Origin: Takakia lepidozioides
Lineage: Eukaryota; Plantae; Bryophyta
Assembly: GCA_030704615.1 (NCBI GenBank)
Contig: CM060734.1
Coordinates: 42,718,001 to 42,782,000, forward strand
Reading direction: 5' to 3'
Length of the DNA stretch: 64,000 bases
Below are positions 3,621 through 61,989 of the stretch, in pieces (positions within the stretch are counted from its first letter, which is position 1; the number at the start of each line of letters is the position of its first letter). Both the position numbers and the translations under genes were made by a program. The notes under the pieces were generated by a model, which saw nothing but the letters and a program-made list of their open reading frames with translations, did not search any database and had not been told where the DNA came from.

Positions 3621-3626
3621 TTTTCC
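3555..3626 (-). promoter_or_regulatory. Putative -1 ribosomal frameshift signal at the gag/pol junction
   Basis: Slippery-like G GAA AAC (3626-3620), a 6-nt spacer, then a perfect 10-bp stem AACCAGTAAG/CTTACTGGTT. pol lies in the -1 frame. Confidence 0.7.
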
Positions 3627-33000: not shown

Positions 33001-33159
33001 CCCGTGCTTGAAGTAGGACTTGCATTTCTATGTACAGATTTTAGCCCTATATCACCGTGGTGGCATTTAGTGTTCTACCCACTGAATTTCCACTGAATTT
33101 CTACCTGGATATATGAACTGATGGATGGTATTTTTCTAGTCCATAACGTCTTTGTGATG

Positions 33160-34135
33160 TTATTTGGCCAGATTGATTGAATGATGATGGCAGTATCATC
33201 CCTCTCCTTGCTTTTGGGCAGAAGACTGACCAGGATGCTGGGTTCCTTCGCAAACCCAAGCTGCTTCAGCTTTGAGCTGATGCCTACCTTGAAGGAATGA
33301 TCATGGCTAGGAGTATGTTCCAGGGAATTTCCAACAGTCCGAGAGGGAAGGGAGAGGGATAGAAAGCGCCTGCATATTCGGTACAGCTCAAGGGTGTATG
33401 CTCATCCACCTGGGGCAAATTCAAAAACAAGACAAACCCTACTAGTCTACCTGATGGTATCTTTTATGCCTTCAATGGCAAGGACCTCTTCTTGAAATCC
33501 TGGTACTGGGAACTGGCCTTGAGATGTGAGCCTGGAAAACTGCGCCAGTAAGAGTAATGTTTCTACAATGCAAAAATTTTGGTCCTCGTGTGGCGATCAA
33601 ACAATCCTTTTCGCTTTGTCTGCCATGAAGGGACGATGAACCTTGCAGCAAGCTTGGCTATGCCGCTCATGAGTTGCTCCCAAAACTCTGGAGCGGAATG
33701 TGAAGACACTGGAGCTGGCTTGGTGCTCAGAGAGGTAGCTGAATTCCACGAGAGCCAGTCATTCTCTACCTCTTCGTACTTATAGCGAAATTTTTCCATA
33801 TCAAGAGAGTCTATACAAATCAGCGCGCAAGTATCTTCACTGTCACTTGACCGTTCCAAATTTTGACGAAAGTTTGTGAGCTCGCACTTTGTAGACGTAG
33901 ATGCACGTATTAACAGTTTCAGAGAGGGAAGGCGAGATATGAAAACCAACCTTCACACGAACAAGATCAGCGTTTTCATCGTAGAAGAGAAACTCCGTGT
34001 TGAGCCAGTCGGGGTCAGTAAGGTCGCCACGTTGACCGCCTGGCAGGTTCTTCCAGAGATCCCACAAACGGTCCCACATTGGTGTGAAGTGCAAAGAAAA
34101 GGGGATCTCTTGTTGACAAATAGCATGAGCCCAAG
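33160..34135 (-). pseudogene. PPO: Second PPO copy, 5'-truncated and degenerate
   Basis: Paralogous to exons 3-4 of the first PPO ([34 protein letters not shown]), with indels. Confidence 0.88.
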
Positions 34136-34290
34136 TCTTACATCACATTGGTCAATGTTTGCAGATTGATTGACATAATTACCCCAAAAAACTTGCCTGG
34201 GCATAGGATTGAAGATTTGCTTCATCCATATTAGTTTTCGCCTTCCCTGCCTCTTTAACACTTATTCACTTTTTACTTGATCTTGTAGTA

Positions 34291-35989: not shown

Positions 35990-37890
35990 TCATAAAACCA
36001 GAGAACCTTACATCAGAACGTATAGGCTTACAAATACATACAGATCCATCTGCACTTTTTCAGTGCTCAAAGACTGGCACAGGCATCGGAATACACATGA
36101 GGTTCACCTACCAGGCATCACCCATTCACAATCTCCAAAGCCTCCCTGCCACACCCAGTACATCAACAGAGTACACATAAGTTCCTTGCTTTGCATCCTC
36201 AATGCACCCATATTGGGCATACATGTCCACCAGGCCAGAGTTCAGAATGACATCTGGTACAATTCCAGCTTTGACAATGTCACCATAGACCTCTTTTGAC
36301 CTTTTCCAGGGCTGCCAGGCTTGCACAAGCATTGCAATCACACAAAAACATGATGTGGTTGGGCCTCACCCCTTCCCCCATAATTTGATCATAGGTCTCC
36401 AAATCCACCAATCCCACGTCTCTGCTGTGCATACCCTGCGATGCTTGTGAGTGTGTGCACCTACTTTCCAGCTTCCAGACCTTTCTTGGTGTGAATCCAC
36501 ATCAGAGTTTGTTGGCACTAGGAAAGGGTTGAGACTGAGCTGCTCAACTACTCCCTGGTCTTACTGGGCTTACATAGTGTGCCAAGCACAACATCTAGTG
36601 CCAAAGCCTCCATCCAGTGCTGTTGTGCATACCCTGCAAGCATCGAGTTCCACGACACCACATCTCGTTCAGCCATATTGTTCCCTTCATACATGTCCAC
36701 GAGGGTATTGTTCAGAATGACATGTGGTACAATTGCAGCTCTGACAATGTCGCCATGGACCTCTTTGCCCTTCTCCAGAGCTGTCAGGCTTGCACACGCA
36801 TTGCAAACTATCAAAGGTTCACTCAACCAGTAACTTGCAGAAATCAACATGAAAATTTAAGGACGATTTCTATAAGAGGGGAAAACAGGGTGAAAATGTT
36901 TTGAAGAAGGTGCCTTCATTAGCAGTGCCCGATTTTATGAATTGTGCCACTGCTGCTGAATCTGGACCCACACTTTTCCTTTTTCCAGGGCTGCTAGGCT
37001 TGCACAAGCATTGCCAACGCACACTAACGTGATGTGGTTGCACTTCACCTTTTTCCCCATCATTTGTTCATAGGTCTCCAAGGCCTCCATCCTGCGCCCC
37101 TGCTGGCATATCCTGCAAACATGAACACTCCCTCCGCATCCTCAATGCTCCCACATTTGGCATCCATGTCCATGAGGGTATTGTTCATAATCACATCTGG
37201 TACAATTCCAGCTTTGGCAATGCAACCATGCACCTCTTTGCCCTTCTCCAGGGCTGTCAGGCTTGCACACGCACTGCAAACGCACACAAACCTGATCAAA
37301 ACCAATGGCCAGCTTCTCACTGTGGTGGCAAAGAGAAAATTCCTTTTCTCCTTCCCCACATTATGAAATACAAAGCGCGTGTCACCCCGCCTCCTTTCAT
37401 TTGCCCAGACAATCTTCTCAGCTCAGCATGGATTTCCTTGATTCTGGGATGCAACCTGTCATCTACAGCGAAGGTGTGCACCCTATTGCAAATCTCAATG
37501 CAGCAGCGACTTTCTAACCCCTCTGACCTTCATCATTCTTCTCACCAACTCCTGCTTTTACGATGCAACCATGCACTCCTTCGCTCATTTCCAGGGCTGT
37601 CAGGCTTGCAAACACACAGACGTGATGTGGTCGAGCTTTACCCCTTCCCCCATCATTTGCTCATAGGTCTCCAGAGCCTCCATCCCACGCCCCTGCTGTG
37701 CATACCCTGCAAGCATCGCATTCCACGACACCACATTTCATTCAACGATATAGTTGAACATTGCCTTCGCATCCTCAATGCTCCCACATTTGGCATACAT
37801 ATCCACGAGGGCATTGTTCAGCATTACATCGGATACAATTCCAGCTTTCACGATGTCACCATGGACCACTTTCCCCTTTTCCAGGGCTCC
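35990..37890 (-). pseudogene. Degenerate PLS-class pentatricopeptide repeat (PPR) gene remnants
   Basis: Repeated ACASLTALEKGKEVH, NALVDMYAKCGSIEDA and ERDVVSWNSMLAGYAQ motifs with many frameshifts. Confidence 0.85.
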
Positions 37891-38209
37891 CAAGCTAATC
37901 GACTGCTGGTTAAGGTTAGTGAAACAAAACAACTGTATTATCTCAACGAATGATACACAAATGTCTTGCTGGCAACTATTGGATGAACGTATCAAACATA
38001 ACTTTTGTGCACTGGATGAACGTATGAATGAATGATAATGCAAACGCTGAGCTGACAACAATTGGATGAACTGATAGTGAAACTCATTTAAAGATTTATT
38101 TTGGATGAATGGATGAAATTAAGATGGCCAAAAAATGGAAAAACAAATGAATGGATGGATGTATTGATGGAAAACCCAAAATCCATCCATCTATCGAGGA
38201 TCTAATTTA

Positions 38210-38450
38210 CATTAGAAGAATTCTATAGATTTTTGGTCAGGTCCAAAAAAACTAAACCTCTGGCAAGTAGATTTCCCCTTTCTGCAGCTATCCCCCCAAA
38301 AACTGCGTCAAACGGAGCTCATTTGACAAAGATATGACCAACCAAGCTCTTTAAGCATAACACCCTTTAAAAAAAAAAACAAATACAAGGAAAAATCTAT
38401 TTTCAATAACTTGTCTTGGTTCCCTGTTCCCTGGTTCCCTAAGAATTTCC
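38210..38450. repeat. Dispersed ~240-bp repeat, copy 1
   Basis: Shares 'gtagatttcccctttct.cagctatccc..caaaaactg.gtcaaac.gag..catttgacaaagatatgaccaacca.gctctttaa.cataacacc' with 51498-51750. Confidence 0.8.
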
Positions 38451-42299: not shown

Positions 42300-44973
42300 C
42301 TTTGGTCTGGAACTCGCTCGCACGACTCGTTTTCTGACTAACGATTAGCCTCCTCCAAATTAGGGTCCAAATTAGGGTCCAACCCTAAACCACCCTTTCT
42401 CGGTCTCCACCACTCCACCTTCACCTTCTTAAAATTAGGATCCTCCCTTTCGCGGATCACGCCAGATATTGTCACCCCCATGCAGACCGGGCATGTACTT
42501 GGGTCATAAGGGCGAACGAGCACAAAAAACCTTGAACGGATTCAAGGATATTCTTGGTCGCTCACACCTCGGGCCACATTAAGGTTCTAGGATTCCTCCT
42601 CTTTTTTCATATCTGGCAATATATGTGGATGGATTCCATCTCTGTCACTACAGCAAATGGGGGGGGGGGGGGGGGGGGGGGGGGTTTGCGACGCCACGCC
42701 CCCACGTCCTGCGCGACGCCGAGCCCACGGCGTTTTTTTGCGACGCCTCGGCGTTGCAATCCCCCGCTGCGACACCATTACGACGCCCAGCCGTCGTAAG
42801 GTGGCATGAAGGGGGAAAGAGGACCCTCGCTGCGACGGATTTTTTTTTCTTGCGACGCCCCGGCGTCGGAAATCCAAATATATATATATATATATATATA
42901 TACATATTAGACATTGCGACGCCTCGGCGTCGCAAAAGCGTCACTAAGGGCGCCCCAGCGCCTCTGTGACGTCAGGGCGTCGCAACAACATCACCACAAT
43001 GAGATTTTTTTTTATTTTTTTTATTTTTTTCGGGCTTTGCGGCCCTCAACTTCACAAAAGCGTCGTTGGGGGCGCCCCGCGCTAGGACACCTAACGTTGC
43101 GACGTCAGGGGGTCGCAACGGCGTCGCCACAGGGGGTCGCAATGATGTTGTGGTCAGCTTAGGTCCACACAATGACGTCGCTTGGGGCATCTGGTGGTGG
43201 GGGGGTACAACAATGGCGATGATGCTGGGGCTGGGGCTGGGGCTGGGGCTGGGCACTAAGGCTGTGGAGGTTGCAACTCCCCGGCGTCACAAGAGAGACC
43301 CCCTTAGAAAGAACTTGAAGGAACTTGAAGGAAATCTTTATATGTATATATATAAATTTAGATTGTTTTTGTGATACATAGATAAAGCGTAGGTGTGTTG
43401 GTTAGTTTGTAGTGTCTTAGAAATGTTATAAAGTGGAGGTCTTAGGTTCAATTATGCGTTGCATGATATATGTAGAACAATGAACATATCGCCATTAGAC
43501 AGAACCGGAGTCAATGGTCAACAAGTTTTTGAAATTCAAATTTTCTCGCCTAAATTCAAATGTACCCCCTTAAATTGTGACGTCTGGGCGTCGCACTTTG
43601 CGACCCTCGGACGGTGCTAATTCTGCATTGCATAAATTTTTATTTTTTTATTTTTTTTTCGACGCCCGGGCGTCGCAAACCGCAGTTTCGCGATTTTTTT
43701 TTGGCGACGCCCTTACGACGGGCTTGCAACGCCCGGGCGTCGCAAATTTGGTTTTTTTCCCGACCCGAAAAGGGCTATTTTACGACTCTGCGGCGTGGCC
43801 GTGGCGTCGAAAACCCCCCATTTTCCTGTAGTGTGTAATGATTCTTGGACCAATTTGTTTTCGGCCAGAATCCCTCAAGAAGCTGAAGACGGTCGGGAGC
43901 TTTTGGAATTGGCTTATCCAGCTCGGCGAGAATGTTTCCCCAGTACTGGTCGTATTGTTCCATTCGACCTCTGTAATGATCGTCAAGCATCATTCCTTTC
44001 GTCCAAAAATCCATGTATTTTTTTTTTATTCCATTCTTAATGAATGACTATTTTTCGGAGGAGTCGTCCCGACTCCCCAGATAGGTCTCATTGGAACGGC
44101 GTCTGGGTCTCCTTCAGGGAGCTTCAGAGTCCCGTCAGAATTGGACTTCCACATCTTCACGCTATTGTTTGTTGGAAGCCAATCCGAATCAGTAGCGGAC
44201 TTTACGGGCCAGCCCTCCGCATCCTTAAAAAAACGAAAGACGTGCATCTCCGAAATCCCGACCAACGCCTCCTTTCCATCTAGATTACAGCCTTTGACAA
44301 AATTCTTGAAGTCGGGAACCTCTTGAATAATCTGTGGAATGAACTGCAGATCTTGCGAGGTCATAAAAAACCTCATCAAATCAGAAAGAATGTAGGTGCT
44401 TCGTTCCTTCAGCTTCTTCGATAGGTAGCTGAAGAACTCGTCGATGTCCTCATGGGTGTGTCCGACCATTAGGAACCCTAGCTGGATTTCTTCAAAAACA
44501 TCTTTGGCGGTCAGGAGGGATAGAAAAGCAAGCATCCATCTGTTCTTATTGTCCTTCACAGAGTTGTCCATTTGCAAGTACAGTCTTCTCGGAAGTGGAC
44601 GAGCACCACGTTTGTCTTCCGGCCTGCAGGGTTTAAGAGCATCCAAACATCTCGATTTACCTCTGATTCGAAAAACTTGTTTTGAAGTCGATAATCGAAA
44701 ATGTTCATAGACTCGTGACATGTTGGCTTCTCCAGCTGGCGCAGGCAACGTGCCAAAGAACCAATTGTAAAGTTTGAATTTCCCTTCCAGAACTCAAGAG
44801 AATACTGTCCGTAAGCTCCATCACCGTATCCGTGCGTGACCATTCTCGTTAGTGAAACTGGAAGCTGACCCAATCCAGAAATCATCTTATTTGGAGTCTG
44901 TAGCCTTGGAACAACTGATTTCCTATGATCCATTTTGTCGTGAATAATACAGAGAAACTCCTCCGGAATCATA
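42300..44973 (-). mobile_element. Sola/DUF7869-like DDD transposase gene remnant, split by two insertions
   Basis: IIHDKMD...GSNFTI...LPRRLYLQMDNSVKDNKN...FLMVGHTHEDIDEFFS. The C-terminal part (EGFWPKTNW, VLVRPYD...VEWWRP) continues on both sides of the CACTA insert. The 5' end is lost at the Gypsy insertion. Confidence 0.75.
42646..43833. mobile_element. Non-autonomous CACTA (En/Spm) element
   Basis: TIRs CACTACAGCAAATGGGGGG and CACTACAGGAAAATGGGGGG. 3-bp TSD TGT at 42643-42645 and 43834-43836. Dense GCGACGCC subterminal repeats in both orientations. Confidence 0.93.
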
Positions 44974-45501
44974 TGTCGTGCGCATACATATCGCTACACA
45001 ACTACATCGCTGTCCAAACCACACCACACATATATGCACAATAAAGTAGTCTGCCACAATGATAAGAAAACTAGAAAACATACTGCTCACACCAGAAACA
45101 ACATGAATCCATCGCTATCACTCTTTAAAACAGAACTCGAGCCAGGGGCACCCCAAGCTATGGGGACTCCACCCCACAACAACCTACACTCCCATCATAA
45201 GCACACTCAAATCTAAACGCATGAAGGAGCTCGGTCGCGCAGGCTCAACTCGAGAGAGATGAGCTGCGCGACTGCCGCTCTCGTGAAGATAAGACGGACC
45301 AGGTGTCAAACTAAACTTGACACCTGATTTAACACTTGACCTAAATCCAAGTGTTAAATACAAATAACTAGTTTTATTCTAGCTGTTTTCACACTGTGCT
45401 TATTTAACTTGACAGCTGTCGTGCGCATACATATCGCTACACAACTACATCGCTGTCCAAACCACACCACACATATATGCACAATAAAGTAGTCTGCCAC
45501 A
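44974..45501 (-). repeat. 3' LTR of the DNMT-Gypsy with an 85-bp direct repeat at both of its ends
   Basis: 44974-45058 equals 45417-45501 (TGTCGTG...GCCACA). The PPT abuts 45501. Confidence 0.8.
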
Positions 45502-45760
45502 ATCGCCCCCTAGCTGGTGGATAGGTCCCTCTACCTCCAGATAGCTACAAGATGTAATAGCCACAGCCGTACTAAGTCCTCTATCACTGTCCCTATTGTA
45601 CTCAAACTCTATAGACCAAGGGGCCGGGTACAAGAGTAGCCCCATCGTTAGTCGCCGTCTTGCAATCTGTGAACTTGAGCCAGGATCTCGTGTGTTCAAG
45701 GTCTCCTAGTAGCTGGGCCTTGCGTTTCTTGTTAGCCTTCCATGGTTGTATCCACTCCCA

Positions 45761-48732
45761 CTATCCAATGCAATGTGGACATAACCAATCCCCATCTGGA
45801 ACCATCTCAAGAGGTGGAGTCAAGCATCCCATATGCCAACCTCTAGAGCATCGATCGCACACCAGCATGGTGGCTGCCCCTTTAGCAGACCCACACAACA
45901 TGCACCTCAAACCTGCAGATACCACTGCCAGGTTTGGGTCAATCCTGCCATCGACATTCGGAAGGTGACATGGCGCACAATTACGCACATGGTCCTTCCA
46001 AGTTATGCCATCCCGACCCTCCAAGACCAAGACGCCTGAGGGCAAGACCTCTCGAACCCTCAGAATAACACGTCCTGCAGTCACATCCAAGGTCGTAGGA
46101 GCAGTTTGCTGCAGATAGACATAGTCACCAGGGTTGAATCTCCGAACCCCAGGACGATAGCCCCCACCACGTATGGTAGCATACCTCAACGTATCACGGT
46201 GTTGTGCAATGGCAAGGTTCTCGAAAGCCATGGGCATGACTCTCTTGAACAACTCTGCACGCTGCTCACATGCACGTGCCCACACGTCCGGATCGTCAAG
46301 GTTAAGAACTGTAGCAACTTCTCTGCGAATGGATGTAGGCAAATCCGGCTCTCGGCCAAAGAGAAGAAAGTATGGTGAGAAGGAGGCAAGTGACGCTTGC
46401 TTGCTGAACCTGTAGCCCATGGCTAACCAGGGTAACTGAAGGTCCCAATCTCCTAGGTGTCCCTTCTGCAAGCCATACTTGCACAAACCCCTCTTTACTG
46501 TCTGAACAACTCTCTCTGCCAAGCCATCGGCCTCAGGATGATCCCGAGAAGTGGTGTGGTGGTCTATCAAGGCCTTGTCACACAAAGCCTGAAACTCCCC
46601 CAAGAACTCTCTCCCTTGGTCCGTGAGTACCTCAGCTGGAGCACCGAATCGGCTAAGCACACAATCCAGGAATGCATACGCAGCTCCCACACTAGCCTTA
46701 TCAGGCAATGGAACCAATTCAATCCACTTGGAGAAGTGCTCCACCATCACCAACACATATCTGAGGTGGTGCATAGTCAGTGGCAACGGTCCTGCGAAGT
46801 CAAGATTCCACCTGTAGCCCAATCCCATGATCGGAAGAGGATGCAACTGGGGTGTAGGGGCCTTGAATGAAGCACGCTCCCTGTCACATACCATGCACCT
46901 AGCCACGAACCGTTGCACCTCTGTGTGTATACCACGCCCTCCAATACTGCCCCTGCAGTAGACTGTGAGTGCGTCGCACTCCAAAATGCCCCAACTCCTC
47001 ATGGGCATGCCGCACTAACCGTGCCCGCTGTGTTGGGTGAGGCACAATCCTCACTCGACCATCCTCCCACACTCGGAGCAGGTGTGTCCCCTCCCACCTG
47101 AACCTCTTGGCTCGTTGTAGGATCCGATCCCTCTCCTTGGCAGTCACAGTGGCTGCCGTGTCTCCAGTGCGGAGGTAGTCCAATACAACTGAATCCTCAT
47201 GTATATCTTTGGCGCCACCTTGCTCATTGCTGGCCTCAGGGTCCTCAGACACTTGATCTACAGTTATCCCTGTTGCAGGTCCAACCTGGCCTTCCGCTGC
47301 CAAGATACACAGAAATGCAGATGCAAGCGATCCGGGCACCATCTCCTCGTCCGTCTCACCATGCCACCGAGCTCCAGTGTCATCCTGTTGGCTCGTGCAT
47401 GGATTGCGACTCAACCCATCTGCATTGCGATTGACCAAACCCGGTCGATGCACCACTTGAAAATCATACTCTTGAAGGATGAGTGCCCACCGTGCAAGCT
47501 TCCCCGTAAGCTTGTCTGACTCCATCAACCACTTGAGTGGTTGGTGATCCGTGACAAAGGTGAAGAGATTGCCGTATAGATAGCACCTAAAGTGTGCCAC
47601 GGCCCACACTGCAGCTAAGCATTCTCCCTCATATGAGCTATACTTAGACTCTGCAGCATTGTTCGAGCGGCTAGCATAAGCCACTACAAACTCTCTCCCC
47701 TCATCATCCACCTGTGTGAGCACCGCTCCAAGCCCCAGCATGCTCCAATCTGTATGCAGCTGAAAAGAACGCCCCCTGATAGGTCGTCTCAAGATGGGCG
47801 CCGAGGTCAACCTCGCCTTGAGCTCTTGAAAAGCTTGTTCTTGCTCATCTTCCCACTGCCACTCCTGGTCCACCTTGGTCAGCTTGGTTAGAGCCTTTGC
47901 AATGGCACTAAATCCTTTAACAAACCGTCTGTAATAGTTTGCTAACCCCATGAAAGCTCAAACTCGGCTCACATCCGTGGGGCGTGGAACCTGTGCAATG
48001 GACTCTACCTTAGTCTGCTGTACCCCCAATCCTCCAGGATATATCATGTGACCCAGATACTCAATCTGGTTGTGGAAAAACTTGCACTTGCCCGGATGTA
48101 ACTTCAATCCGTGCGTCCTTAAGCGCTCAAATACCCCCTGAAGGTGTCTCTCATGCTCTTCCACCGTAGCACTAAAGATGATGATGTCATCTATGTAGCA
48201 CCGAGCAAACTCCACCCCTGCTAGAATCCTGTCCATGACTCTTTGAAACTCAGCGGGAGCGTTTTTAACCCCAAATGGTAAGAACCGCCACTGGTATAGG
48301 CAATCCTTCCCGTGCTCATTGATCCCCCAGAATGCTGTCTTTTGCTTATCCGCCTCCTTGATCGGCAACTGGTGATATCCGGATCGTAAATCCAACGTGC
48401 TAAAGACCTTGGAATGCCCAATGGCATCAAAGATCTCCTCTGGTGTCGGCATGGCATACCTATCGGACTTGGTCTGACGATTTACAGGCCGGTAATCACA
48501 TACGTCTCTCCGTCCAATTGCCATAGACATCCTTCTTAGATGACATCACTGTGGCTGAAGCATACTCTCCACCAGAGAGCTCCACCAAACCTGCCTCCCA
48601 AAGATCTTGAGTCCTCATCTGAATCAAAGACCTCTCCATGTCACTGTATCTATAAGGTCTCCGAAAGATTGGCGTGTCAGTGGCCAACTCAATACGGATC
48701 TCTTGACCCTTCAGTGCTCCCAAGTCCTTCAA
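45761..48732 (-). pseudogene. pol: RT-RNase H-integrase-PHD portion of pol, disrupted
   Basis: ORFs 48496-48732, 47958-48530, 46899-47951 and 45761-47008. The C-terminal CMLC...CDRC...WHMGC...WLCPHC is a C4HC3 PHD finger. Confidence 0.93.
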
Positions 48733-49189
48733 ACTGAAGGCAAAGCAATTCTTGTAAGCCCTCCGGAACCGTCGTATACGTCGTCTCTCTCCTCCGGTGA
48801 CAATGGGTCCAATGTCAGGCTCCCAATTGTCCTCCGTAACTGCAACCTTAAGTCCAGTGGGCTTAGAGGTAGAGGACGCATCCCGTGGTTGCTATGCTGC
48901 AACCTCTTGAGCAGTACTCCCTTCCTGCTCCGTCAATGACAAGGCCTCATCCTGCCCCATCATCTCATCATTGAGAACCTCCTCAACCCGAGAAGAATCC
49001 CCAACCTCATCCATCACAGCTGCCTTGGCTGCCAACTCCCTCTGGACCTCGAGCACCTCCCACGTGTGCCATGGATGTCTACACCCCGTGGTCCTCACCA
49101 GCTCGCCCCCACTCGCTGCCTGTACCGTCTCGGTAGGCAGAGAGACCGTCAAGGGAAGTGCGCTCCGCACTCTACGTTGCTCAGCCATA

Positions 49190-50140
49190 GCCAAGCTGAT
49201 AATCCAGGTCAAGCAATTGAGATCCATTGCTTGCCCCAACACCTGACGACGTGATGCCTCAGAAAGAGAAGGCACCGCCGTGGTCCCAGTGGAAAACCCC
49301 ATAGCCCGCTCTCGCTCGTCGGCATTAGGCTCCACTAACTGTTGCAATTGAACCCACAGGAGGCCAGGTCCACCATCCCGAAAAGCATGGGATCCTGGGA
49401 AGCTGAGCAGTGTAGGTAATGCTGCTCGTGGTTGACCCACCCTGTTGACCACTGCTAAAGGCGAACGGTCATCGTGTCTCACTTGTTGAGACTGCCTTCC
49501 TGTGTCCAAAATGCCATCCACGGTGAGGTGTGCTGGCCGATGCACCCCATCAAATGCACGCTTGAGCAGTGCGGGTGGCATCAAGTTAGTCCACCATAGT
49601 CGTGGACGATGAGCCCGTGACCCCACTGCAGCTGCATCCAGCAACACTGCTGACCCAAGCCACGACCGGACTTGATGCACACTGGCCATCACCCTGGCCC
49701 GAGAATCACCCATCTACGGCTCATTCTCCAAGATGTATGCCGGAGATACAGCTTGATGAAGCTGCAAGTGGCGCAAAATCCGCACCATCTCCCAAAACAG
49801 ACCCGTCCTCGAGTCTAGCAATCTATTGCCATGCCCGGCTGATGAATGCCCTTGGCAGGGCCAACCTGCCACTACCAGATCAATGGAGCCAACCCGCTCC
49901 AAATCCTGCCACCCCAGCAACGCAATGTCTGCTGGCAAGGCCTGCTGATATCCACGAACTGCAGACACCGGCAACAACTCAGGGTACTGCTGCAGCATCT
50001 GAGCAACATGGCGCAGTGAGACGCGTCGTGCAGTCTCATCCTTCTCCACATACAGGTAACGTCGAACTCGTATACCTGCCTGCAGCACTGCAGCCAATCC
50101 AGTGCTGATCCCGCCAAATAAGTCCAGAAGGCATATGCCT
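49190..50140 (-). pseudogene. DNMT3-like cytosine-5 methyltransferase domain within pol
   Basis: Motif I LLDLFGGISTG, II YVEKD, IV AGWPCQGHS, VI ILENEP, VIII AHRPRLWWTN, IX ERERAMGF and X RRQVLGQAMD. One in-frame TAG at 49714-49716. Confidence 0.92.
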
Positions 50141-51497
50141 TCATCCGGGCACTGCCACACAAGAGGTGTGGTGTCCAATGGTGACAACTGAGGTGGTCCT
50201 GGTGCAATCACCGCACTCTCCTCCTCTCCTGACGGTACGAAAGCTTCTACCCAAGCTTGTTGCACCCGTCCATCAGCAGCCTGCTGCAAATTCTTGCTCG
50301 TACCCCACAATGGAGTGTGAGCAACCATGGCAGATAACTCCATGGCAGATAACTCTAGGATTGACCGGTGATCAAATCCGGCCTAATCCCTATGAAAGCA
50401 AGCGCCCACACAAAACCAACATGGCGCACAGTCAAGCATGCAGGTGTTGGGGGGGATCCAAACACAAGAAATCAAAACATCAACACCCCCACACCAAAAT
50501 CCAGCTGCAATGCTGATCCTGCAGAATAGCCCAGCCCAAAACCCCGGACTGACTGGCCTCCACCAAGAGAGGCTTTGGCAACTACAAGTACATGGTAATG
50601 AAAATAGTACAGAGATGGAGGGGAAGAATAGAAGCCCGCCCAAGCAAGATCTAATCCTGATCTATGCTATCAACTTCCAGACTTCTCTCAAAGTGCCTCG
50701 CTCTGCATGATGGTAAGGTGTAGGAGGTATATCTATGTCCAGAAACCTGCCACTAACCTTGTCCCAAGCTACAGTAGCTCGCTCTAACCAACCCTCCTCC
50801 TCTTTCTGCCAGGTAGAGACAAAGCAACACTCTGCTATCTCCCGCTCACTGAACACTAAAGAAAACAAAGGTAGGGTCTGATAGCCTCTCAACTCGAAAG
50901 CTTTGAGACGGTTGCGGGTGTCCTCATTGCGAATGACTGCATCTCCTTCACGCACAACAAACATATCATTGCTAATGAACCTCCGCTCGTGGTTGCCCTG
51001 TGCAGAGCGTATCCGGCTGCAACCATGTCTGATTGCACAAACTTGTGTAGCTCCTGCTCCTCTGCTCCAGTACACCACGGCCTTGTTGCTGAACACCTTG
51101 GTCCCCGGGGCTGTCTTTGGCTGTGTTCCAAGCCTAGCTTTCACCCACTTTGGTATTTCACCTACAGCTACAGAATTGCTGGCTCCAACAGAGTTCTGAC
51201 TGTCCAAGGCGATATTGAGGCCCTCAATGCCAATTACAGCAGCTTGTTGTCTACTGCTAATGCCTGACTCCCAGTATGCAATCAACTCGTCCAACTGTTC
51301 TCCACTCAAATCAGTCTGAGTTCCTTGGGAAACATAAATCCTGTCCCCTTGTGTGCACAGGCTAAGAGAAGAGTCCTGCCCTTCAATTACGTCCTCATTT
51401 CCCCCAGCCATACAAGGAGTACATCCACAGATTTGTCTCTCATATAGACCAGCACAGGTTCTAGAAACAGAATTGTGGATCTTTCATGGCACACTCA

Positions 51498-51750
51498 CAC
51501 TCTAAAAATTCCATAGATTTTTAGCAGAGTCCTAAAAACAAAAACCAGGTCTAGATTGGTAGATTTCCCCTTTCTACAGCTATCCCCTCAAAAACTGGGT
51601 CAAACAGAGTCCATTTGACAAAGATATGACCAACCAGGCTCTTTAAACATAACACCTTTTTCTTTTTTCTTTTTTTCTTTTTTTAAAATTTTTTAACACC
51701 AAAACGTTCTCGCCATTACAACCTGTTCCCAGGTTATCTACGGGTTCCCG
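51498..51750. repeat. Dispersed ~240-bp repeat, copy 2
   Basis: Homologous to 38210-38450. Lies next to the point where the DNMT-Gypsy is truncated. Confidence 0.8.
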
Positions 51751-52931: not shown

Positions 52932-53403
52932 ACTGTCCTGGGAATCTTGTATGGTTGTCATGATATGTCTCTGACGACCGAGGTGGTTTGTTCTATGGAC
53001 AACAACATTACCCCGAGGGATTGTATTGTTGGAATGTGCAAACCTATCTGTGGTTCATTTGTTTCTTGAAAATCTCCGAATTTCAAAAATGATCACCTGG
53101 CAATTTTTTAGCCGAACCCGGAGATCACAGAATGGGGCATTGTACCCGTTGGCACACCTCCGGACCATAAGTTCCGGTTCCAATACAAGATTGGTGCAGA
53201 GGTCGCCAAGCTCAAATATACAGTCGACGTAGAGCTAGAGATGGATGTGGAATTTCCGATGTTGGTAATGTTCATGATAGAAGATGGTAGATTTCCCAGA
53301 ACGTTTGGCTTCAAACTGGAGATACGAATTCTAAGGAAGGCCATGATGAGAGAGTCCATCAGGGCGGGGTTCACATACTCAATTTACAGATGAAGGTTTT
53401 TGC

Positions 53404-54349
53404 ATGGCTTGGGGTATTTTCTTGGATGTGCTTTACTTAAAGGGTAAGAAGATTGCAAAGACGCGGGAGGAGGAGGCTGCAAGAGCGAAGCCAAAGACGG
53501 GAAAAACGAAATCCATTGACGCCGGTGGTGATGACAATGAAGCCGGTACATCAGGGGGAAAGAAGAAACAAAAGGAGGAGATGGATCCTGCCTTCATGAC
53601 AGATATCAAGAAACCCAAGGCTTCAGACATATTCGACAAAGACAAGTGTGAGAAGATGCTGGAGATAGAGAGGCTGGAGCAAGACTACAAGGACATGTTT
53701 CCTTTTGGGTTTGAGGCGACCCAGGACGTCAAAGTTTCCATGATGGAGCTTGCTCCCAGGGATATGGTGTACAGGCCCCTAAATGTGAAGCACAAAGACG
53801 AAGTCAAAGCGCGTCTTTACCAGCTCCGGGTGTTCGACTCCAAACATCCACTTTATTTGATTCCCGCAAACCCCGAGAAGCCTATGGAGGTTTCTAGTTC
53901 GAAACATCAAAACTGGAAGGAGGTGGAAAATTCCAGATTCTTCGTCATCGGTGGACAACACACGATCGTTGCTGCCAAGGTAAATTTCCCGACAAAATCC
54001 AATTTTTGTAACAACATGAACCTCCACTGTTCATGAACTTTAAACAACATGCTTGTTAGGTCGATATCATTTCTGACCTTATTCATTTCTGTGGCAGGAA
54101 CTTGTGCAAGACGTGGACGACGACAATCTTAAGAAGTATTACACTGACTGGCCCTCAAAGATTATATGGTCAAAGGATCTGATGAGGCTCGTGAAGCTAT
54201 CGAAGCTCCTAAACGACCCGAATAAGGAGCAAAAATTTGACACAACATTTACCGAGAAAGTTGCACATGCCTGAAATTTCTTCGAGCTGAGGGGGAGGCC
54301 GAAAAAGTACAACGATCACACAACGAAGTCGGAGACTAGACAATGGAAG
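53404..54349 (+). CDS. ParB/Srx-fold-like domain exons
   Basis: VYRPLN..H...LYLIP....FFVIGGQHTIVAAK resembles the ParB-like (D/G)GxHR motif context. The next exon has an in-frame TGA. Confidence 0.5.
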
Positions 54350-57300
54350 GTAAATGATTCATTGTGTTTTCCGTTCCTTTTGCTAGAGAACCAAAATATT
54401 TTCAAGCTCGGATTTAATGTGATGAACGGAGACCGCATTACGAAGCAGGAGACACTACAAAAATAGCTTCATAAGGGAGGGTGTTACAATGAACGAGCGG
54501 GATGGTTCAGCATTCGGAAATTTGACATGATGGGGTCTTTTGTAATGTATCTTGTTTGGTAATGAGGTGCTTGTCCAGCTCTTATTTTCCCAATCTATTT
54601 ATGTTCTCCACCTGTAACAGTTCCGCAAATGTGCCGCAAAAATACTTGAAACATCATATGATCATAAAAACGTGATGTTGCGGAGAACACTTCCAAAACT
54701 ATTCATGCTCATTGGGTTTTTCAAGGATTTTCTAGGTACACTCTTGGAACTGTTCCTAGTAGAGAACATGAACAAATTGGACAAATTTGACTTGGAAGAT
54801 CACCGCATTCCGAAGCAGGAGACACTACAGAAAGAGCTTCAAATTACAAGGCACAACAAGATGGACGGAGATGAATTGACAATCGAATCATCACTTGATG
54901 TATAGTATAATTGACATGATAGTTGTGACTATTGTTTCATCTCAAAATTAATATCAAATATCGAATGAAATGTCTAACTTTGGCCCTGATAATTTTCGTA
55001 GGAATTTATGCAAGCATGTCAACTCATACTGGAGATGAGTAGCGTGAAGAAGGCCATGGTTCTGGTTCTCTGTGACGAAGATGTATGGAACCTGTGGGAG
55101 GAGGTTTTCAAACAGTGGGAACAATTGAAGCTTATTGATATTTTCGGGATTCAGTGCAAGGGTGAACAACTACCGCTGAATAAAACCGCTATCGCAAAAC
55201 TGCAAGGACTTAATAGCAGGCAGTTGAAAAGAGTGGCGGAGAAAATCCTAAACAGAGATATTTGCATTCGGGGAACGAAATTCAAGGGCGCGGACAAATC
55301 CAAAAACACAATGAGCGCGTATATTGACCAAATGAAATTGCGACGGTTTATTATCGACGATGTAATGGAAGTCTTAGGGTGGCCTCGGAGGAGCAAACAG
55401 AACCCGGAACCGTATACCAAACAGGAGTGGCGTGATGTTAAAAAAAAATACAACTTCAACAAAGTTGAGTTTGAAACATTTCGAGATAGGCTCGGGAACG
55501 ACTACATTGTTAGCAAACAGAAGATGAATATGGAGACGCAGCCAATGACTGATGTCTTCAAGAAGTATGTCTTGTCGTGCAAGCAGACCTTCGAGGATAA
55601 CCAGAATGCCCTGGCGATTCTACGCACGAGCTTGAGGTCCCATTACACACAGCTGGGGGGGAACCAGAAATTTGCTGATGCCAAATCACGGTTGGGACTT
55701 GCACCAAAGAATCGGTTCGACGACATGTCCATGGTGTTCGTCAATACAGTTTGTGATGATGACTATGTTGTCTTTGAGGCAAAGGACTACTCAAATATCC
55801 TGGATGCTTTTGTGGCTCGGAAGCTCATGTCCAGTGCTTTTGTGTTTTTCTCGACACAAGAATCATCGGGAAATCTTGTGTCATACATCTGGAATGGCTG
55901 GATCAAAATCGTTTATTATCCGAAAGGGTTATTACATTCCCGGCGAGTTTGAATCACCTTACAAGAGCTGCACGACTATTTTCTCCCGGACGGTCCTCTG
56001 CCTCGACTACGTATTTCCGGCAACAACTAAGGAGATGGTGAATCCGGACGACCACATTCAAACTGTTTTGTTATCGCCAGACCCAATTAATCCCGTTATC
56101 CAAGGACCAGATGTAGACCCGACCTCGCAGGAGAAGGAGTGTAGGACTTACAATCATGAGCTGAGGCCGGACACCTACGATTACCTGGTTTTTTTTTTTT
56201 TGCAGGGACGGAATGTCTTGCGTGAACATTTTCGGAGGACTGGCAATGACATACGTTCTGCTTGTAAGTGGATTGTGCATCTTGGAATTGTCTGTGTTTT
56301 CAGTTTTCCCGGATTTAACTCTCGTATTATTGACGTTGTCGGAATAGCGTGTTTAACATGTGTCTGATTGTTTCCATTTTGTTAACCTCCACTGGGCAGT
56401 GGAGGTTCATGTTATTGGAGTTGTGGGTGTTTTGGGTGTTTGTTATTCTGCAGTTTGGTGTGTTTAATAGTTGTCTCAAAAGAAAGCCTATCCCTTTCAA
56501 TCTTTCGATGGTTGGTGTTCGTCGGATTTATTTTGATATCATTGTTTGGTTACATTGCAGGAAAGAAATATTCGTGTGCTCGACATAAACTTTATAACGA
56601 ATTTTTTTTTTTTGTAGAAGACTCACTGCAGGATGACGAAGTGGACAAAGAAGATGATGACGAAGGACACGACAAGGATCAGGACGAGGAAATGGAGGAG
56701 AAACTAGGAGAGGACGAGGAGGAGGAGAAAGACAAAGATAAGAACATGGAAATCGTCAACGGAGACCAGGGGCAGATGCGGCTAACGTGGGAAAGGGAAA
56801 GAGATGGCCAGGAAATTTCCCGGTTGGATAATCTAGGTAGTACTCCAAATACCCAAGAAGGCGTTGCGCCACAAGATGTACACAATCTGGACAGCTCTTC
56901 CCCCAGTTCTGATAACACCACGAATAAGAATCCGGCTTCTCCAGGGGGACAGGAAGCGACATCAAGGGAGTTAGTTGAAACCCTCGGTCAAGGGTTCACA
57001 CCTGTGGAAGGTGACGATCCATTGATTATGTCACCGGATCCCGTTAACAATCGTCGTGAGCTGGTATCCCAGAATGTCACCCAGGAAGTGGTTCTAGATG
57101 TAGGTAACGAATGACAATTAGTGAATGTTTATTCGTACACACTTCTGAATACAATATGACAATATTGTAATTATACATACTTGTGAGTGGAATAATCGGA
57201 ATGTTTTTTCCATATGACAATATTATAATTATATATAATCCCAATGTTTTTCCCATATCCGTCTTTCTGGACTTCCGAATAAAACATATTTCCACCTGGA

Positions 57301-57838
57301 TACATATTTCCATTCGCACACCTTTGTGGACAGCCACTAACCGATTTGGATAACTTTTCTTGTAGATCCAAGAATCCAATTCGGAGGGAATGACACACAC
57401 AAGAAAATGATCAAATGAGACTCAAATGGTGAAGAGACACGTGGATTTGACAGTGAGGGCCAGGTCACATGAGCCAGTTCCGCAAGTAACCTCCACTGTC
57501 CAGTCGACGTTGCCATCAAGGGACACATGGATTGAGTCGGAGAATCCTCCTACTCGAGGGGAAGGAGAAGAGACAGAGCACCACAATCGCATAATCCAAC
57601 AACAGATCCCGATTCGGATAAAACATTGGCTTTTATTCTTATTACTCTTATTATTGGTCTTTCAGTCTCATTTTCGGTATTGCTCAATTCGGTATTGCTC
57701 AATTCGGTAATTTTGTCAGATTATTTTGGACCACCATAGTCGTCATCCGTGGGATTTTTCATTAATTTCCTGTAGATTCGTGAGACGACGTCTGAGGAGA
57801 TCAAACACACGAGGACCGACTCCATCGACACTGAGACG

Positions 57839-58918
57839 GTGAAGAGAAGAGTGGATCAAACAATTACTGTCGCTCTATCTGAGCCGGTCATACAAGTAAC
57901 CTCCACTGGACAGTCGAGGTTGCCATCTGGCTCCACAGAGAAGGACGATAACGTTGGACGTAGAGATGGAAAAGAGGAGGAGCAGCCTGCCCAGGGATCT
58001 CAGCAGCTGACTCCAAGAACAATAATGATTTCAACTCCATTCTTCCGTTTGTCTACTTTGGGATTTCTCAAATTGAAATTAATAATGAACTCTTCTGTTA
58101 TTCCACATGACAACATGCATTACCCTCCAGTCGACTATTCCCTTTCTTTCAATCCAAACAATCTGCATTCCCTTCCTTGGGGACCGAACGGATGCCGGCC
58201 AGGATACTACGTCCTGGTTCTGGACATCGGTTACCTTTGTGAGGTTTTCCTAAAGGATGGAAAGAAAACACCTCCTGCCACCCAGCCTTGTATCTCCGCA
58301 GGGAAATTCAAGTTAGCTACGCGAAACGGTCTTGACGAATTCATTAAGTGGGCTGTCAAAAAGTTTGCCGTTTGTTTTTGGAACACTGGACCTGAAATGA
58401 ACGTCGAGACTATCGCCAAGGCCGTGTTCGGGAAGTACTATTCCCAGGTCAGAACTTACAGCAGTGAGAATTCCGTCATGCATAGATCGACATTCAACGA
58501 AAAATGGCCCAAAGCTCCCAAAAATCCCATCTACTTTAAATGTCTTTACGACATTTTCGCTGAGGAAGACCCGACAGCTTACAAATCCAATACTCTCATC
58601 ATCGACACTGTAGACAATATGTACAAGTCCTACTTGAACCCGTTAGGGCATACCATCTTCCTTCCAAAATATAAGGCGCGCGTAGACCCTGACAGGGATA
58701 AATTTCTATTGGAAGAGCTCAAGCCTCATCTTAACATGTTCCGGTTATCGGGGATGGATGTCATGCTGTTCAACAACCTACATCCTTTCAGCGTTTCGAA
58801 GGATTTCTTCGAGGATGACCCAACGGTCAAATTTCTTAGAGACTTTGATTATAGGTGGCAGAAGTTCCTTAGCAATCTCGAGTTGCGTGCTGCTGCATTG
58901 GGAAATAAAATATTTTAA
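57839..58918 (+). CDS. FCP1/NIF-like HAD domain 1 (divergent)
   Basis: VLVLDIGYLC...RNGLDEFIKW...FAVCFWNT...SNTLIID...KSYLNP. Confidence 0.65.
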   Translation: MKRRVDQTITVALSEPVIQVTSTGQSRLPSGSTEKDDNVGRRDGKEEEQPAQGSQQLTPRTIMISTPFFRLSTLGFLKLKLIMNSSVIPHDNMHYPPVDYSLSFNPNNLHSLPWGPNGCRPGYYVLVLDIGYLCEVFLKDGKKTPPATQPCISAGKFKLATRNGLDEFIKWAVKKFAVCFWNTGPEMNVETIAKAVFGKYYSQVRTYSSENSVMHRSTFNEKWPKAPKNPIYFKCLYDIFAEEDPTAYKSNTLIIDTVDNMYKSYLNPLGHTIFLPKYKARVDPDRDKFLLEELKPHLNMFRLSGMDVMLFNNLHPFSVSKDFFEDDPTVKFLRDFDYRWQKFLSNLELRAAALGNKIF

Positions 58919-59023
58919 CTGAGTTTGGTGAACCTCGGCTGTCCAGTGGACGTTCTTGTTCACTTGCCTGGTGTCGTTTTTTCCAATGCATTGTACTGTT
59001 CCCTTTTATCATCCAAAGTATGA

Positions 59024-59761
59024 ATGACTCTCTGGCAGATTGGAGCACCTGTTTCTCCTCCTGCGCAAGGGTTGCGTGACGTGAATGGAGTCTTGTGCAA
59101 AATCTTGAAGCACAAGAAGAGCTACAATGTCCCCCGGTTTTCAGAATCAGACTACAGAATTCCAGCTCTTGTCGGATTCCGACTTGTCTTTAGACAGGAG
59201 AAATATCGCGAAGTGTGGACAGAGTTGCACAAACACTACCGGTTAGGGATAATTTGGAGCTCTATGATGTACAAGAACTTGCAGCCCATCTTGGATTTTT
59301 TGCTTCATGGTCTACCTCAACCGGCCTTCGTTAGGTCTCAAGAGGATTGTATTTCATGCCCTACTTCGGTTCACCCTCAATTCAAATCAGGATTGGACCC
59401 TCCTCATTTGTTTTTGAAGCCACTGGTCAAGGTCTGGAAAGGATTTGGTGGGCAATACACCAAGAGTAACACTCTGCTCATTGATGACACCGCCATGAAG
59501 TGTGTATTGAACCCGCCTGACTCATGTCTTGTTCTCAAACCGTTCCAGACCGTTGAGACTGATGGTTGCTATCTTCTCAAGGTTCTTCAGACCTATTTGC
59601 TTGGAATGAGGAAACATCCCACTGTTTCAAGCTATCTTAGGAAAAAAAGGATAGGGTTGAGTCTTTTTCCCAATGTTTCAAATGATCCCAAGTTTAGCCC
59701 ACTCTGGGATTTTATTGAGGACAACGATTTTAAGAATCTCAGATATGATGCTTCAAAATAA
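59024..59761 (+). CDS. FCP1/NIF-like HAD domain 2
   Basis: DVNGVLC...IIWSS...FLKPLVKVW...NTLLIDDTAMKCVLNP. Confidence 0.75.
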   Translation: MTLWQIGAPVSPPAQGLRDVNGVLCKILKHKKSYNVPRFSESDYRIPALVGFRLVFRQEKYREVWTELHKHYRLGIIWSSMMYKNLQPILDFLLHGLPQPAFVRSQEDCISCPTSVHPQFKSGLDPPHLFLKPLVKVWKGFGGQYTKSNTLLIDDTAMKCVLNPPDSCLVLKPFQTVETDGCYLLKVLQTYLLGMRKHPTVSSYLRKKRIGLSLFPNVSNDPKFSPLWDFIEDNDFKNLRYDASK

Positions 59762-61311
59762 ATTATTTTTTATCAATCCCATCTCACTCGAGCTATTGAA
59801 TATCTTCATGGTTTCTCTTTTTCATTTCCTTGTAATCACACACGTGAAAGATATGGTACTCTCATTTTGACTCATTTTCAGTTGAATTCTTGACGCACAT
59901 TCCGGGCAATCCCAAGACTCTGATACAGGCCTTCATATGGGGACATGACTATATCTAGTGACCTCCACTGTTCAGTGGAGGTTCGCATTCGTGCATTCCC
60001 GGATTTATGATTATGTCTCTTTGGCAGGTTCAAGGAGATGCTGACAACGTCATCGGTTCCTCAAGTCCCCTAAAGTAACCCTCCGGATCAGCTGTGAGTC
60101 GGAGTATTGAAGGCTTTCCGAGGGTTCACGATGGTGCTCAAATTGAGGATGGATCCTCTGTCAGACCCTTGTCCTCCCGGGAAGCGGGCGACACTCTTCT
60201 CCTCTCGGGTCCTCCTGGGGGTAAAGTCCAAGGTGCAGGTGAAGAACACAAATATCCCGGAGACTTTATCGACCTTTCCCAACATTCCTCACCCTCCCTA
60301 TTCAGTACGCAGGGTCTGGTCTATCCAACCCGCAGGGCAACCATCGGGGACTCGGCTACGGCTCCACTGCATCTGCTTCCGTCTCTTCCTCGCATATCTC
60401 CCCAGCACGAGGGTTGGATAGCCCAAATCCGCAGGAGTCAGGTGACTTAAATTCATTTCTCGCTCGTTGCTTATTCTCCTAGTTTCACTTAGTTTGGGGT
60501 CTGATATTCATCTGTCGCTCCAGGTAAGAAAATCTGCAGATTATAACCTTCCTGTCAAACGACGTCTGCATTGGAATGCAGTTCCGAGGTAAATTATTCC
60601 TTCGTTGCGTTTTCATTCCATCCAGGATGTCGACTGCTCAAGGGACAATTTTTTGTGCTTGCCTGTTATTGCCCCTCCACTTCTCCTGTCGTTCAATGGC
60701 AAAACATCGACACAGCGTGACCCTGAACTGCTCGCACAATGTTCTGCACCAAAGAGGCGAAAAAGAGCCCCCGAGCCATTTACTTCCTCTGCAGGGAATC
60801 ATTCCAAAGGACAAAAGGCTGACAAGAAAAAAAGAGCGGACTCCAAACACTTGAGGACTCCCTCGGATGTTGTGGCGCCTCGTCAATCCAAGCCCGCGGG
60901 AATCCATTGTTCTTCTGTAAGACATTCCAATAAGGCTTCAATGGTACATTTCAAAACAATTCTCCACTTTCGTTTGCAGTTTGTTTTTCTGTCCCAAACT
61001 AACTTCATAATTTCTATACAAGCGAGTATGGAGCCGCATAACTTCTTGAATACGCCTCCCGACAAGGTGCGTCCACTAACCTCCACTTGACAGTCGACGT
61101 TCATCTTTTCGTGATCTCGAACTCTTCGATATATGGTCTACTCTTGGTCCTTTACAATAGTCCATTGTCGGGACACTTATGTCTCTGAAAACGGTCACTT
61201 TGAAACTAAGAAACACTACATCGTGTTGTTTCTGACGGCGGGAACACTTAAATTGCGCAGGATGGTATCGTCCATCAACCTTCATTTGCCACATCGGGGA
61301 AGAGGAAACGG

Positions 61312-61989
61312 ATGCTGTTAATATTGAGTGTCAACGGTCTCCTTTGCTACCGGCCACCTCCAACCAGCGGTGAATTGTTTAAGGAGAGATTTCGTTTCAG
61401 GAAAGTTACAGTTCATGTTCCCGAAAGACCTTTTGTGGTTCCCCGGCCCGGAGTCTTGGAGTTTCTCAACCTTGCGTTCATGCATTTTCACGTGGCGATC
61501 TGGTCATGTGCTGAAAGACATGTTCTTTGTAGGATGCTCGAGTGCTTAGTTCCTACGAAAATTACGAAGAAGTTTTGCTTCATCTGGTCAGCTGAGGATT
61601 GCAAAGACACTACCGGTTACATCATGCCTGGGATGAAATATCTCGTTAAGGATATTCGCACTGTTCTTGCCAAGTACCCTGGTACACCCTTTGCAACTCA
61701 GGGACAAATACTGCTTGTTGATGATGAGCCATCAAAGGGCCTCCGAAACCCACCAAATACTAGATTCTTCCCTATTTCATACAAGCCATCACCAAAGGGA
61801 TTGGTTGACCAGGATGATATGACAAAAGTTGTGTGGCCATATATATTGAAAATGGCTGCAGATTCAACAATCGTAGATTACATCAGCGAGAACCCTGCCA
61901 AGTGTTCTCGGAAGCCTATTGGTCGTGACCATGCCTATTGGGCTTGGTATGGAAGATATGTTGATCCTCGTGTTTGGATCCCACAATAA
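61312..61989 (+). CDS. FCP1/NIF-like HAD domain 3
   Basis: LLILSVNGLLC...RPGVLEFL...FHVAIWS...FIWSAEDC...ILLVDDEPSKGLRNP. Confidence 0.8.
   Translation: MLLILSVNGLLCYRPPPTSGELFKERFRFRKVTVHVPERPFVVPRPGVLEFLNLAFMHFHVAIWSCAERHVLCRMLECLVPTKITKKFCFIWSAEDCKDTTGYIMPGMKYLVKDIRTVLAKYPGTPFATQGQILLVDDEPSKGLRNPPNTRFFPISYKPSPKGLVDQDDMTKVVWPYILKMAADSTIVDYISENPAKCSRKPIGRDHAYWAWYGRYVDPRVWIPQ

Follow-up and report, generated by a model that had tools for sequence, protein, structure and literature searches.

A DNMT3-type methyltransferase upstream of a conserved in-frame stop in a Ty3/Gypsy family with split repeats, as seen from a dead copy in Takakia lepidozioides

The window analyzed here, a stretch of 64,000 nucleotides from Takakia lepidozioides (assembly GCA_030704615.1, contig CM060734.1, positions 42,718,001-42,782,000), harbors on its minus strand a dead copy of an abundant Ty3/Gypsy retrotransposon family. 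The copy lacks gag and protease (PR) and comprises, in this order, a DNMT3-type cytosine methyltransferase (DNMT), reverse transcriptase (RT), RNase H (RH), integrase (INT) and a PHD finger. The layout of the family is gag-protease-DNMT3-stop-RT-RNase H-integrase-PHD with split repeats in the arrangement A...B-A-B, and carriage of the DNMT is a family trait. The copy probably belongs to the lineage of KnitGypsy-Dnmt3 from Klebsormidium nitens; its methyltransferase would be packed into the particle at the level of Gag, where it likely methylates the new cDNA of the element. Taken together, the family is real, abundant and probably ancient; its list of domains is less novel than first supposed, and its predicted translation and integration are more interesting.

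The element comprises the following features:

50662..51411 (-): orphan open reading frame (ORF) of 249 amino acids at the place expected for gag and protease
50167..50373 (-): remnant of the linker between protease and DNMT, where homology to the family begins (tblastn matches of relatives start at 50373-50289; a contig of sequencing run X9 diverges at 50341)
49144..50166 (-): DNMT3-type C5 cytosine methyltransferase, non-permuted and intronless, assigned by sequence, profile and fold (residues 440-780 of the frame)
about 49860-49855 (-): catalytic PC of the DNMT
49716-49714 (-): stop codon that breaks the DNMT, besides the ENE in motif VI
48886..48894 (-): conserved in-frame UAG followed by CAA CCA (CARYYA), the predicted read-through stop between Gag-PR-DNMT and RT-RH-INT-PHD
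47958..48850 (-): Ty3/Gypsy reverse transcriptase (Pfam RVT_1, E 2.5e-33), with a frameshift near 48496 and TGA at 47960-47958
47466..47771 (-): RNase H (Pfam RT_RNaseH, E 1.7e-35)
45905..47040 (-): integrase (Pfam Integrase_H2C2 and rve), consisting of an HHCC finger that a frameshift near 46939 interrupts, the DDE core and the C-terminal region
45761..45904 (-): C4HC3 PHD finger at the end of the ORF (PF00628, E 1.9e-10)
45504..45511 (-): G run resembling a polypurine tract (PPT) directly before repeat B, at the same position in relatives including the distant loci L028 and L043
45417..45503 (-): repeat B, first copy, with CA end, sharing about 77-80% identity with the B repeats of relatives from metagenomes
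45411..45420 (-): palindromic internal junction (end of B, 2 nucleotides, start of A) containing both integrase attachment ends
45061..45414 (-): repeat A, 3' copy, with TG start, assigned from its position; the truncated window copy lacks the 5' counterpart
44974..45060 (-): repeat B, terminal copy, with CA end, forming the 3' end of the element (87/87 identical to the first B; contig depth drops to flank level beyond)

The original prediction of a complete, non-permuted C5-methyltransferase was confirmed by a match to Pfam PF00145 (E 1.3e-10) and by motifs I to X in linear order. Its assignment to the DNMT3 rather than the DRM type likewise held, as the top sequence match in the PDB was DNMT3A (E 2e-10, versus 3e-6 to 4e-5 for DRM-type enzymes). 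Profile comparison yielded 5e-27 for DNMT3A, 2e-15 to 2e-12 for DRM-type enzymes and 5e-9 for HhaI. A model predicted from a 75-row alignment reached a mean predicted local distance difference test score of 95.5, compared with 33 for the single-sequence model, and retrieved DNMT3A as the top Foldseek match (E 1e-19, TM 0.70/0.83). An origin from DRM was rejected: the motifs are not circularly permuted, and DRM2 aligns with residues 9-133 of the query only.

The copy is dead, as had been proposed, which is indicated by the ENE in motif VI, by stops in DNMT and RT, and by the frameshifts near 48496 and 46939, neither of which is shared by contigs of other sequencing runs. At the family level, motif VI reads ENV in 56 of 60 non-redundant copies, and the catalytic cysteine is likewise retained in 56 of 60. 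The earlier description of 51411-48496 as one frame broken by stops alone holds insofar as 51483-48496 (-) is a single frame with four TAG codons. However, one of these (48894-48892) is kept across the family, so that decay does not explain all four, and the unbroken run of the frame into RT was not borne out, as the frameshifts show.

Of 7995 proteins scored against the window copy, 63 matched at E<=1e-10; Marchantia accounts for 17 of these, and Calypogeia, Sphagnum fallax, Klebsormidium and Closterium for one each. A full HMMER search returned 247 clusters (50% identity) at E<=1e-30. The RT-RH region is 81% identical to the Marchantia protein P0011. In addition, 80 metagenome loci were kept of 166 confirmed stretches; these were chosen via the DNMT, so that members without it are uncountable, and several represent one insertion in different samples. 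Gag and protease were found in 32 of the 36 loci with enough upstream DNA, and among the 32 with enough downstream DNA, RT was present in 32, RNase H in 30, integrase in 28 and the PHD in 25. One locus, L028:976-8226, appears to be an unbroken natural relative. The window copy itself shows the Ty3/Gypsy domains RT-RH-INT with a DDE integrase, gag and PR being present in relatives and absent from this truncated copy. A chromovirus identity was rejected, since a PHD follows the integrase and no Chromo match was obtained in the window ORFs or L028, as was that of a DIRS element, since an rve integrase is present and no tyrosine recombinase match was found in the window ORFs or the intact L028.

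The same layout in Marchantia, Sphagnum, Klebsormidium and the metagenome loci, together with purifying selection on the DNMT, excludes a one-off capture. Neutral evolution of the DNMT, against which the original prediction was to be checked, did not apply: comparison of the window with 59 non-redundant loci gave a median nonsynonymous divergence of 0.24 with synonymous sites near saturation (pS 0.74). The ratio of nonsynonymous to synonymous divergence (omega) was 0.09 in 37 unsaturated window pairs and about 0.09-0.19 between lineages; for the L025-L028 DNMT pair the values were 0.032/0.259. A misassembly was ruled out as well, because one contig of run X9, from another organism, spans 45497-50341 at ~94% identity and a contig of run X7 joins DNMT, stop and RT. 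The depth of summed contigs in run X1, a run that may stem from the source sample, is not a copy number; it amounted to 0.7-1.2 million over 45170-50513 versus 4-16 thousand in the outer flanks, and was roughly level across DNMT and RT.

Some relatives show a different arrangement. In chlorophytes the DNMT lies between RNase H and integrase, and the order RT-RH-DNMT-INT-PHD was observed in 31 of 146 newly listed proteins, one of them from Scenedesmus. In the algal-type relatives (P0037, P0040-P0043, P0082 and others) the catalytic cysteine is present in 88 of 88, motif IV reads EC instead of PC in 44 of 88, and many have ENT or ENA in motif VI. Among 9 candidate stretches of viral contigs only one weak DNMT-like match of 33% was found (L001:10001-10345), where two long ORFs were scanned and had no Pfam match.

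The DNMT had been placed in pol directly upstream of RT. It does lie in the same frame and before RT; however, a conserved stop divides the two. A stop codon is found at this site in 57 of 58 alignable loci (43 TAG, 14 TAA), with CAA CCC next in nearly all. The exact CARYYA motif, encoded via different codons, occurs in the window and in four distant loci (L007, L025, L028 and L043) whose DNMT shares ~50-67% identity with that of the window copy. In L028, two clean ORFs of 1369 amino acids (gag-like region-PR-DNMT) and 1047 amino acids (RT-RH-INT-PHD) are divided by the conserved stop alone. Moreover, many database proteins stop about 50-140 residues past the DNMT. CARYYA after UAG is the read-through signal of tobacco mosaic virus and is active in plants (PMC2754532, PMC7026636); it needs no downstream RNA structure (PMC2754532). 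A stimulatory structure 3' of the stop was not found in any of the 4 sequences tested (z -0.3 to -1.0). The in-frame stop between DNMT and RT makes the DNMT the last domain of the Gag-protease ORF; judging from the conserved sequence context, read-through is the likely source of RT-integrase.

In the mechanism we propose, most ribosomes would, in all likelihood, terminate at UAG-CARYYA and a minority would read through, rendering Gag-PR-DNMT abundant and RT and integrase scarce. Within the particle, the protease would free the DNMT, and the cDNA would be methylated in cis, so that the new copy arrives pre-marked; this step we favor only slightly over its absence.

The integrase ends in a C4HC3 PHD finger without a chromodomain match, as originally described. 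The top PDB matches of the finger are CHD4, PHF12, PHD1 of KDM5B/5A, ATXR5, DPF3 and PHF21A, several of which bind histone H3 tails unmethylated at K4. The aromatic-cage tryptophan of K4me3 readers is absent from the PHD of the window copy. Because the acidic residue right before the first cysteine is absent as well, a preference for H3 unmethylated at K4 is offered as a prediction. Going by the known PHD classes, the finger might tether the integrase to such H3 tails, away from active promoters, a step for which we see an even balance.

Alternatively, in line with the broader form of the original proposal, DNMT and PHD might jointly form a chromatin writer-reader for the editing of host methylation, with the DNMT working in trans or where the element inserts. 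A DNMT3-type fold with catalytic motifs intact across the family would suit such a role, and expression at Gag level would supply far more enzyme than RT needs; in addition, chlorophyte-type relatives have the DNMT directly before integrase-PHD. In the window clade, however, the stop and the protease would part the DNMT from integrase-PHD, and the Klebsormidium methylome is plant-like despite such elements (PMC5890265), which renders this role unlikely.

The conserved TAG could also be a splice acceptor or a stop-and-restart signal, with RT-integrase being produced from a spliced or re-initiated message. Pyrimidine-rich bases upstream of the stop in some families, an ATG two codons past it in the dominant family and the lack of a stimulatory RNA structure are compatible with this idea. 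Yet all lineages with intact spacing have the stop in the reading frame of RT, five divergent sequences fit CARYYA via different codons, and this motif works without downstream structure (PMC2754532). We therefore regard it as quite unlikely and retain read-through as the preferred explanation.

An ordinary pair of long terminal repeats (LTRs) is not present. The window copy has no 5' LTR, and its only repeat is the 87-bp, 100% identical pair (45417-45503 and 44974-45060), both members of which lie at the 3' end; this pair is too short for dating the copy. Full-length relatives of about 9.1-9.2 kb read A(~340)-internal-PPT-B(~115)-nn-A-B. A duplicate of A was found at the 5' end in L016, L047, L070, L074 and L078, and the complete DIRS-like repeat layout in L047, L070, L074 and L078, of which the window keeps the B-A-B end. 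All 7 loci with both ends (6 insertions) are flanked by a 4-bp target duplication, none by one of 5 bp; TG and CA are either preserved at their termini or altered by a single base. The combination of such a duplication with TG...CA ends is the hallmark of a DDE integrase. Both termini recur at the internal B-A junction, where 2 nucleotides separate them, in 8 of 8 cases, and likewise in the distant L028 and L043 and in the window. A tRNA primer site (TGG) after the 5' A was not detected in the 4 loci read; thus, neither two full direct LTRs nor a tRNA primer-binding site, the canonical marks of an LTR retrotransposon, were found.

Provided that the plus strand starts at the PPT, B-nn-A becomes the repeated unit, which would place the attachment sites inside it. 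We consider it rather probable that the integrase would not trim blunt ends but make a 2-nucleotide staggered cut at this junction, either internally or in a circle. Both ends of the element would be copied from the internal CA-nn-TG junction, likely cut by the integrase, and the cut of a circle or of an extended linear cDNA at this junction would give the integrated form. Cleavage of a palindromic two-LTR junction in vitro has been described for retroviral integrases (PMC1905944). In about 14 loci a single B forms the end, and three of these have a target duplication; one-repeat circles, B-B recombination or assembly collapse could each explain these ends.

A broader proposal, which we put forward as possible rather than probable, is that of an old Ty3/Gypsy clade across chlorophytes, charophytes and bryophytes, whose working DNMT3-type enzyme would have changed its place in the polyprotein. 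Among the land-plant members the enzyme would have become a Gag-level component of the particle via a leaky stop. The clade would be free of tRNA primers, and its DDE integrase would cut the internal palindromic CA-nn-TG junction as the normal route and not as a side reaction of the retroviral type.

The novelty of the combination of DNMT and PHD had been overstated. KnitGypsy-Dnmt3 has the same architecture (PMC5890265), and PHDs are widespread in retrotransposons (PMC6673714, PMC8557442). In KnitGypsy-Dnmt3 a Dnmt3 domain lies in Pol next to DIRS-like repeats, and its gain has been taken as an acquisition of the K. nitens lineage (de Mendoza et al. 2018, PMC5890265). The window family shares with it the Ty3/Gypsy domains, the non-permuted, intronless Dnmt3-like domain before RT, the DIRS-like repeats and purifying selection on the DNMT. 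It differs in that the host of the window element is a land plant, and in its C-terminal PHD, which is unmentioned in the text of PMC5890265, although the figures may show it. The PHD may be shared nonetheless, as the Klebsormidium protein P0052 (KFL_009030040; PR-DNMT-RT-RH-INT) is a partial model ending before the PHD position. Furthermore, in KnitGypsy-Dnmt3 the DNMT is part of the ORF of RT (PMC5890265), whereas an in-frame stop lies between them in the window family (57/58 loci); the target duplications and the internal attachment junction found here are undescribed in the available text of that paper.

Three other groups of elements are comparable in part. The EpiLTRs of Cymbomonas and Euglena (bioRxiv 10.64898/2026.05.21.726589) are also LTR retrotransposons that join a DNA methyltransferase writer to a histone reader, but combine DAM, an enzyme sister to DNMT4 and a chromodomain, in contrast to the DNMT3 type and PHD, with no DAM seen, in the window family. 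SymbioDIRS-Dnmt3 of Symbiodinium (PMC5890265) likewise has a Dnmt3-type domain in a retroelement with A...B-A-B repeats, and its enzymes perform de novo CG methylation in yeast; it has a tyrosine recombinase and a DIRS RT, whereas the window family has a DDE integrase and a 4-bp target duplication. Chlamydomonas REM1 and CR1 share the PHD as an accessory, presumably chromatin-targeting domain, and no DNMT is reported for them in the available text (PMC6673714, PMC8557442). Among host enzymes, PpDNMT3b (Yaari et al. 2019, PMC6453930) shows that non-permuted DNMT3-type catalytic domains exist in non-flowering plants. Host plant DNMT3 has a C-terminal DUF3444, in contrast to the window DNMT, which is intronless, lacks a DUF3444 match and lies inside a retroelement.

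Elements of this kind are mentioned in 'streptophytes' (PMC12344493; bioRxiv 10.64898/2026.05.21.726589). A description of one from a land plant was not found in the mostly open-access literature searched, although the supplementary trees of these two sources may include land plants; the accessible text of PMC6453930, PMC11982613 and PMC10952607 does not mention any. Nor did we find literature on the conserved stop or the integration junction of the family.

Trees were inferred for the element-borne enzymes. FastTree analyses of 59 elements (unrooted, no host DNMT3) gave matching topologies for DNMT and RT inside the PR-DNMT-RT group. In the DNMT tree, the window copy and Klebsormidium fall into one set of 11 rows at a support of 98. 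With no host outgroup in the trees, a single origin of the two is likely at most. A separate capture of a host DNMT3 by the land-plant elements, with a convergent common layout, is very unlikely, as the DNMT identity to P0052 of only about 45%, unresolved deep branches in a larger DNMT tree and published recurrent capture (PMC5890265) are outweighed by the same post-protease position of the DNMT, the same unusual DIRS-like repeat layout, the 98-supported grouping and the hundreds of related element-borne DNMTs among the 247 clusters.

Several observations do not fit readily with a common KnitGypsy-Dnmt3 lineage, a Gag-level enzyme acting on cDNA or the proposed integration route. The trees are unrooted and without a host DNMT3 outgroup; in the larger, quick IQ-TREE DNMT tree the window groups with liverwort and metagenome copies (97-99) and the Klebsormidium clade is unjoined; and in the RT tree the same side also includes an unrelated chromovirus. 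With regard to the stop, it is followed in the dominant metagenome family by CAA CCC, which departs from the consensus at one base, and by an ATG two codons later, and the Klebsormidium-side proteins P0046 and P0047 and the distant P0077 continue from DNMT into RT without a stop. Since Klebsormidium-side and several distant proteins lack it, the stop is clade-specific. At shallow divergence, the constraint on the DNMT is looser than that on RT (median omega 0.54-0.68 versus 0.32-0.50, both inflated by dead copies) and resembles that on gag and protease. The Klebsormidium Gypsy DNMT showed no methylation in yeast, a result called inconclusive by its authors (PMC5890265). CpG depletion is no stronger in the element than in a neighboring chromovirus lacking a DNMT (observed/expected 0.54 versus 0.41) and is not diagnostic of the element. 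Finally, random cutting of a symmetric two-repeat circle should also yield a mirror form that carries the junction 5', yet this form was seen at 0 of 20 5' ends.

Since liverworts and peat moss harbor elements of this kind and chlorophytes contain relatives, the kind is probably old and common. Because Marchantia carries the family, the function of a transposon-borne DNMT is testable in a model plant with methylation mutants. A prediction of enzyme stoichiometry follows from the context of the stop codon, and one of an unusual integrase reaction from the split repeats; owing to these repeats, finders of paired LTRs could miss the family.

Upstream of the linker remnant, the frame opens with ~370 codons (51483-50383) that represent neither gag, protease nor pol. 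The orphan ORF at this place is longer than expected by chance, as none of 2000 shuffles had a stop-free frame of that length, and its DNA is highly repeated in run X1. No relatives turned up in Pfam, Atlas, 81 loci or the protein database, where 0 of 360 candidates matched among proteins of near length. The ORF may be the mark of a non-autonomous subfamily, or else part of a neighboring repeat. An unrelated 158-bp repeat (51504-51660 and 38216-38368, 84% identical) adjoins the 5' end of the high-depth block.

Directly past the 3' end of the element lies a DUF7869 ORF (44026-44793, -), which is repeated (X1 depth >10,000) and not depleted in CpG (observed/expected 1.09); it is probably part of another transposon into which the element inserted. 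On the other side, 53350-61989 (+) contains a series of ORFs without Pfam match together with three that resemble NIF/FCP1 phosphatases, as well as a short motif in several copies (families D7 and D13), and is possibly a large DNA transposon. The chromovirus-type Ty3 element mentioned above is young (27232-33000, +; gag, protease, RT, RH, INT, SH3 and chromodomain), with 510-bp LTRs of 99% identity and one in-frame stop at 30910-30912. It interrupts a local duplication of two broken polyphenol-oxidase-like copies (21460-22606 and 33007-34137, -; 87% identical), for which a protein search with a fragment matched 0 of 902 candidates. Decayed pentatricopeptide-like repeats, presumably of the long/short alternating type, were seen by eye at 36150-37950 (-), and similar stretches lie close to 18713 and 63842. 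Such a neighborhood of polyphenol-oxidase and pentatricopeptide remnants and a chromovirus is in keeping with a land plant, likely a seed-free one. Fragments of another Ty3 element (828-4048, -) and of a Copia-like element (5895-6653, +) lie near the start of the window.

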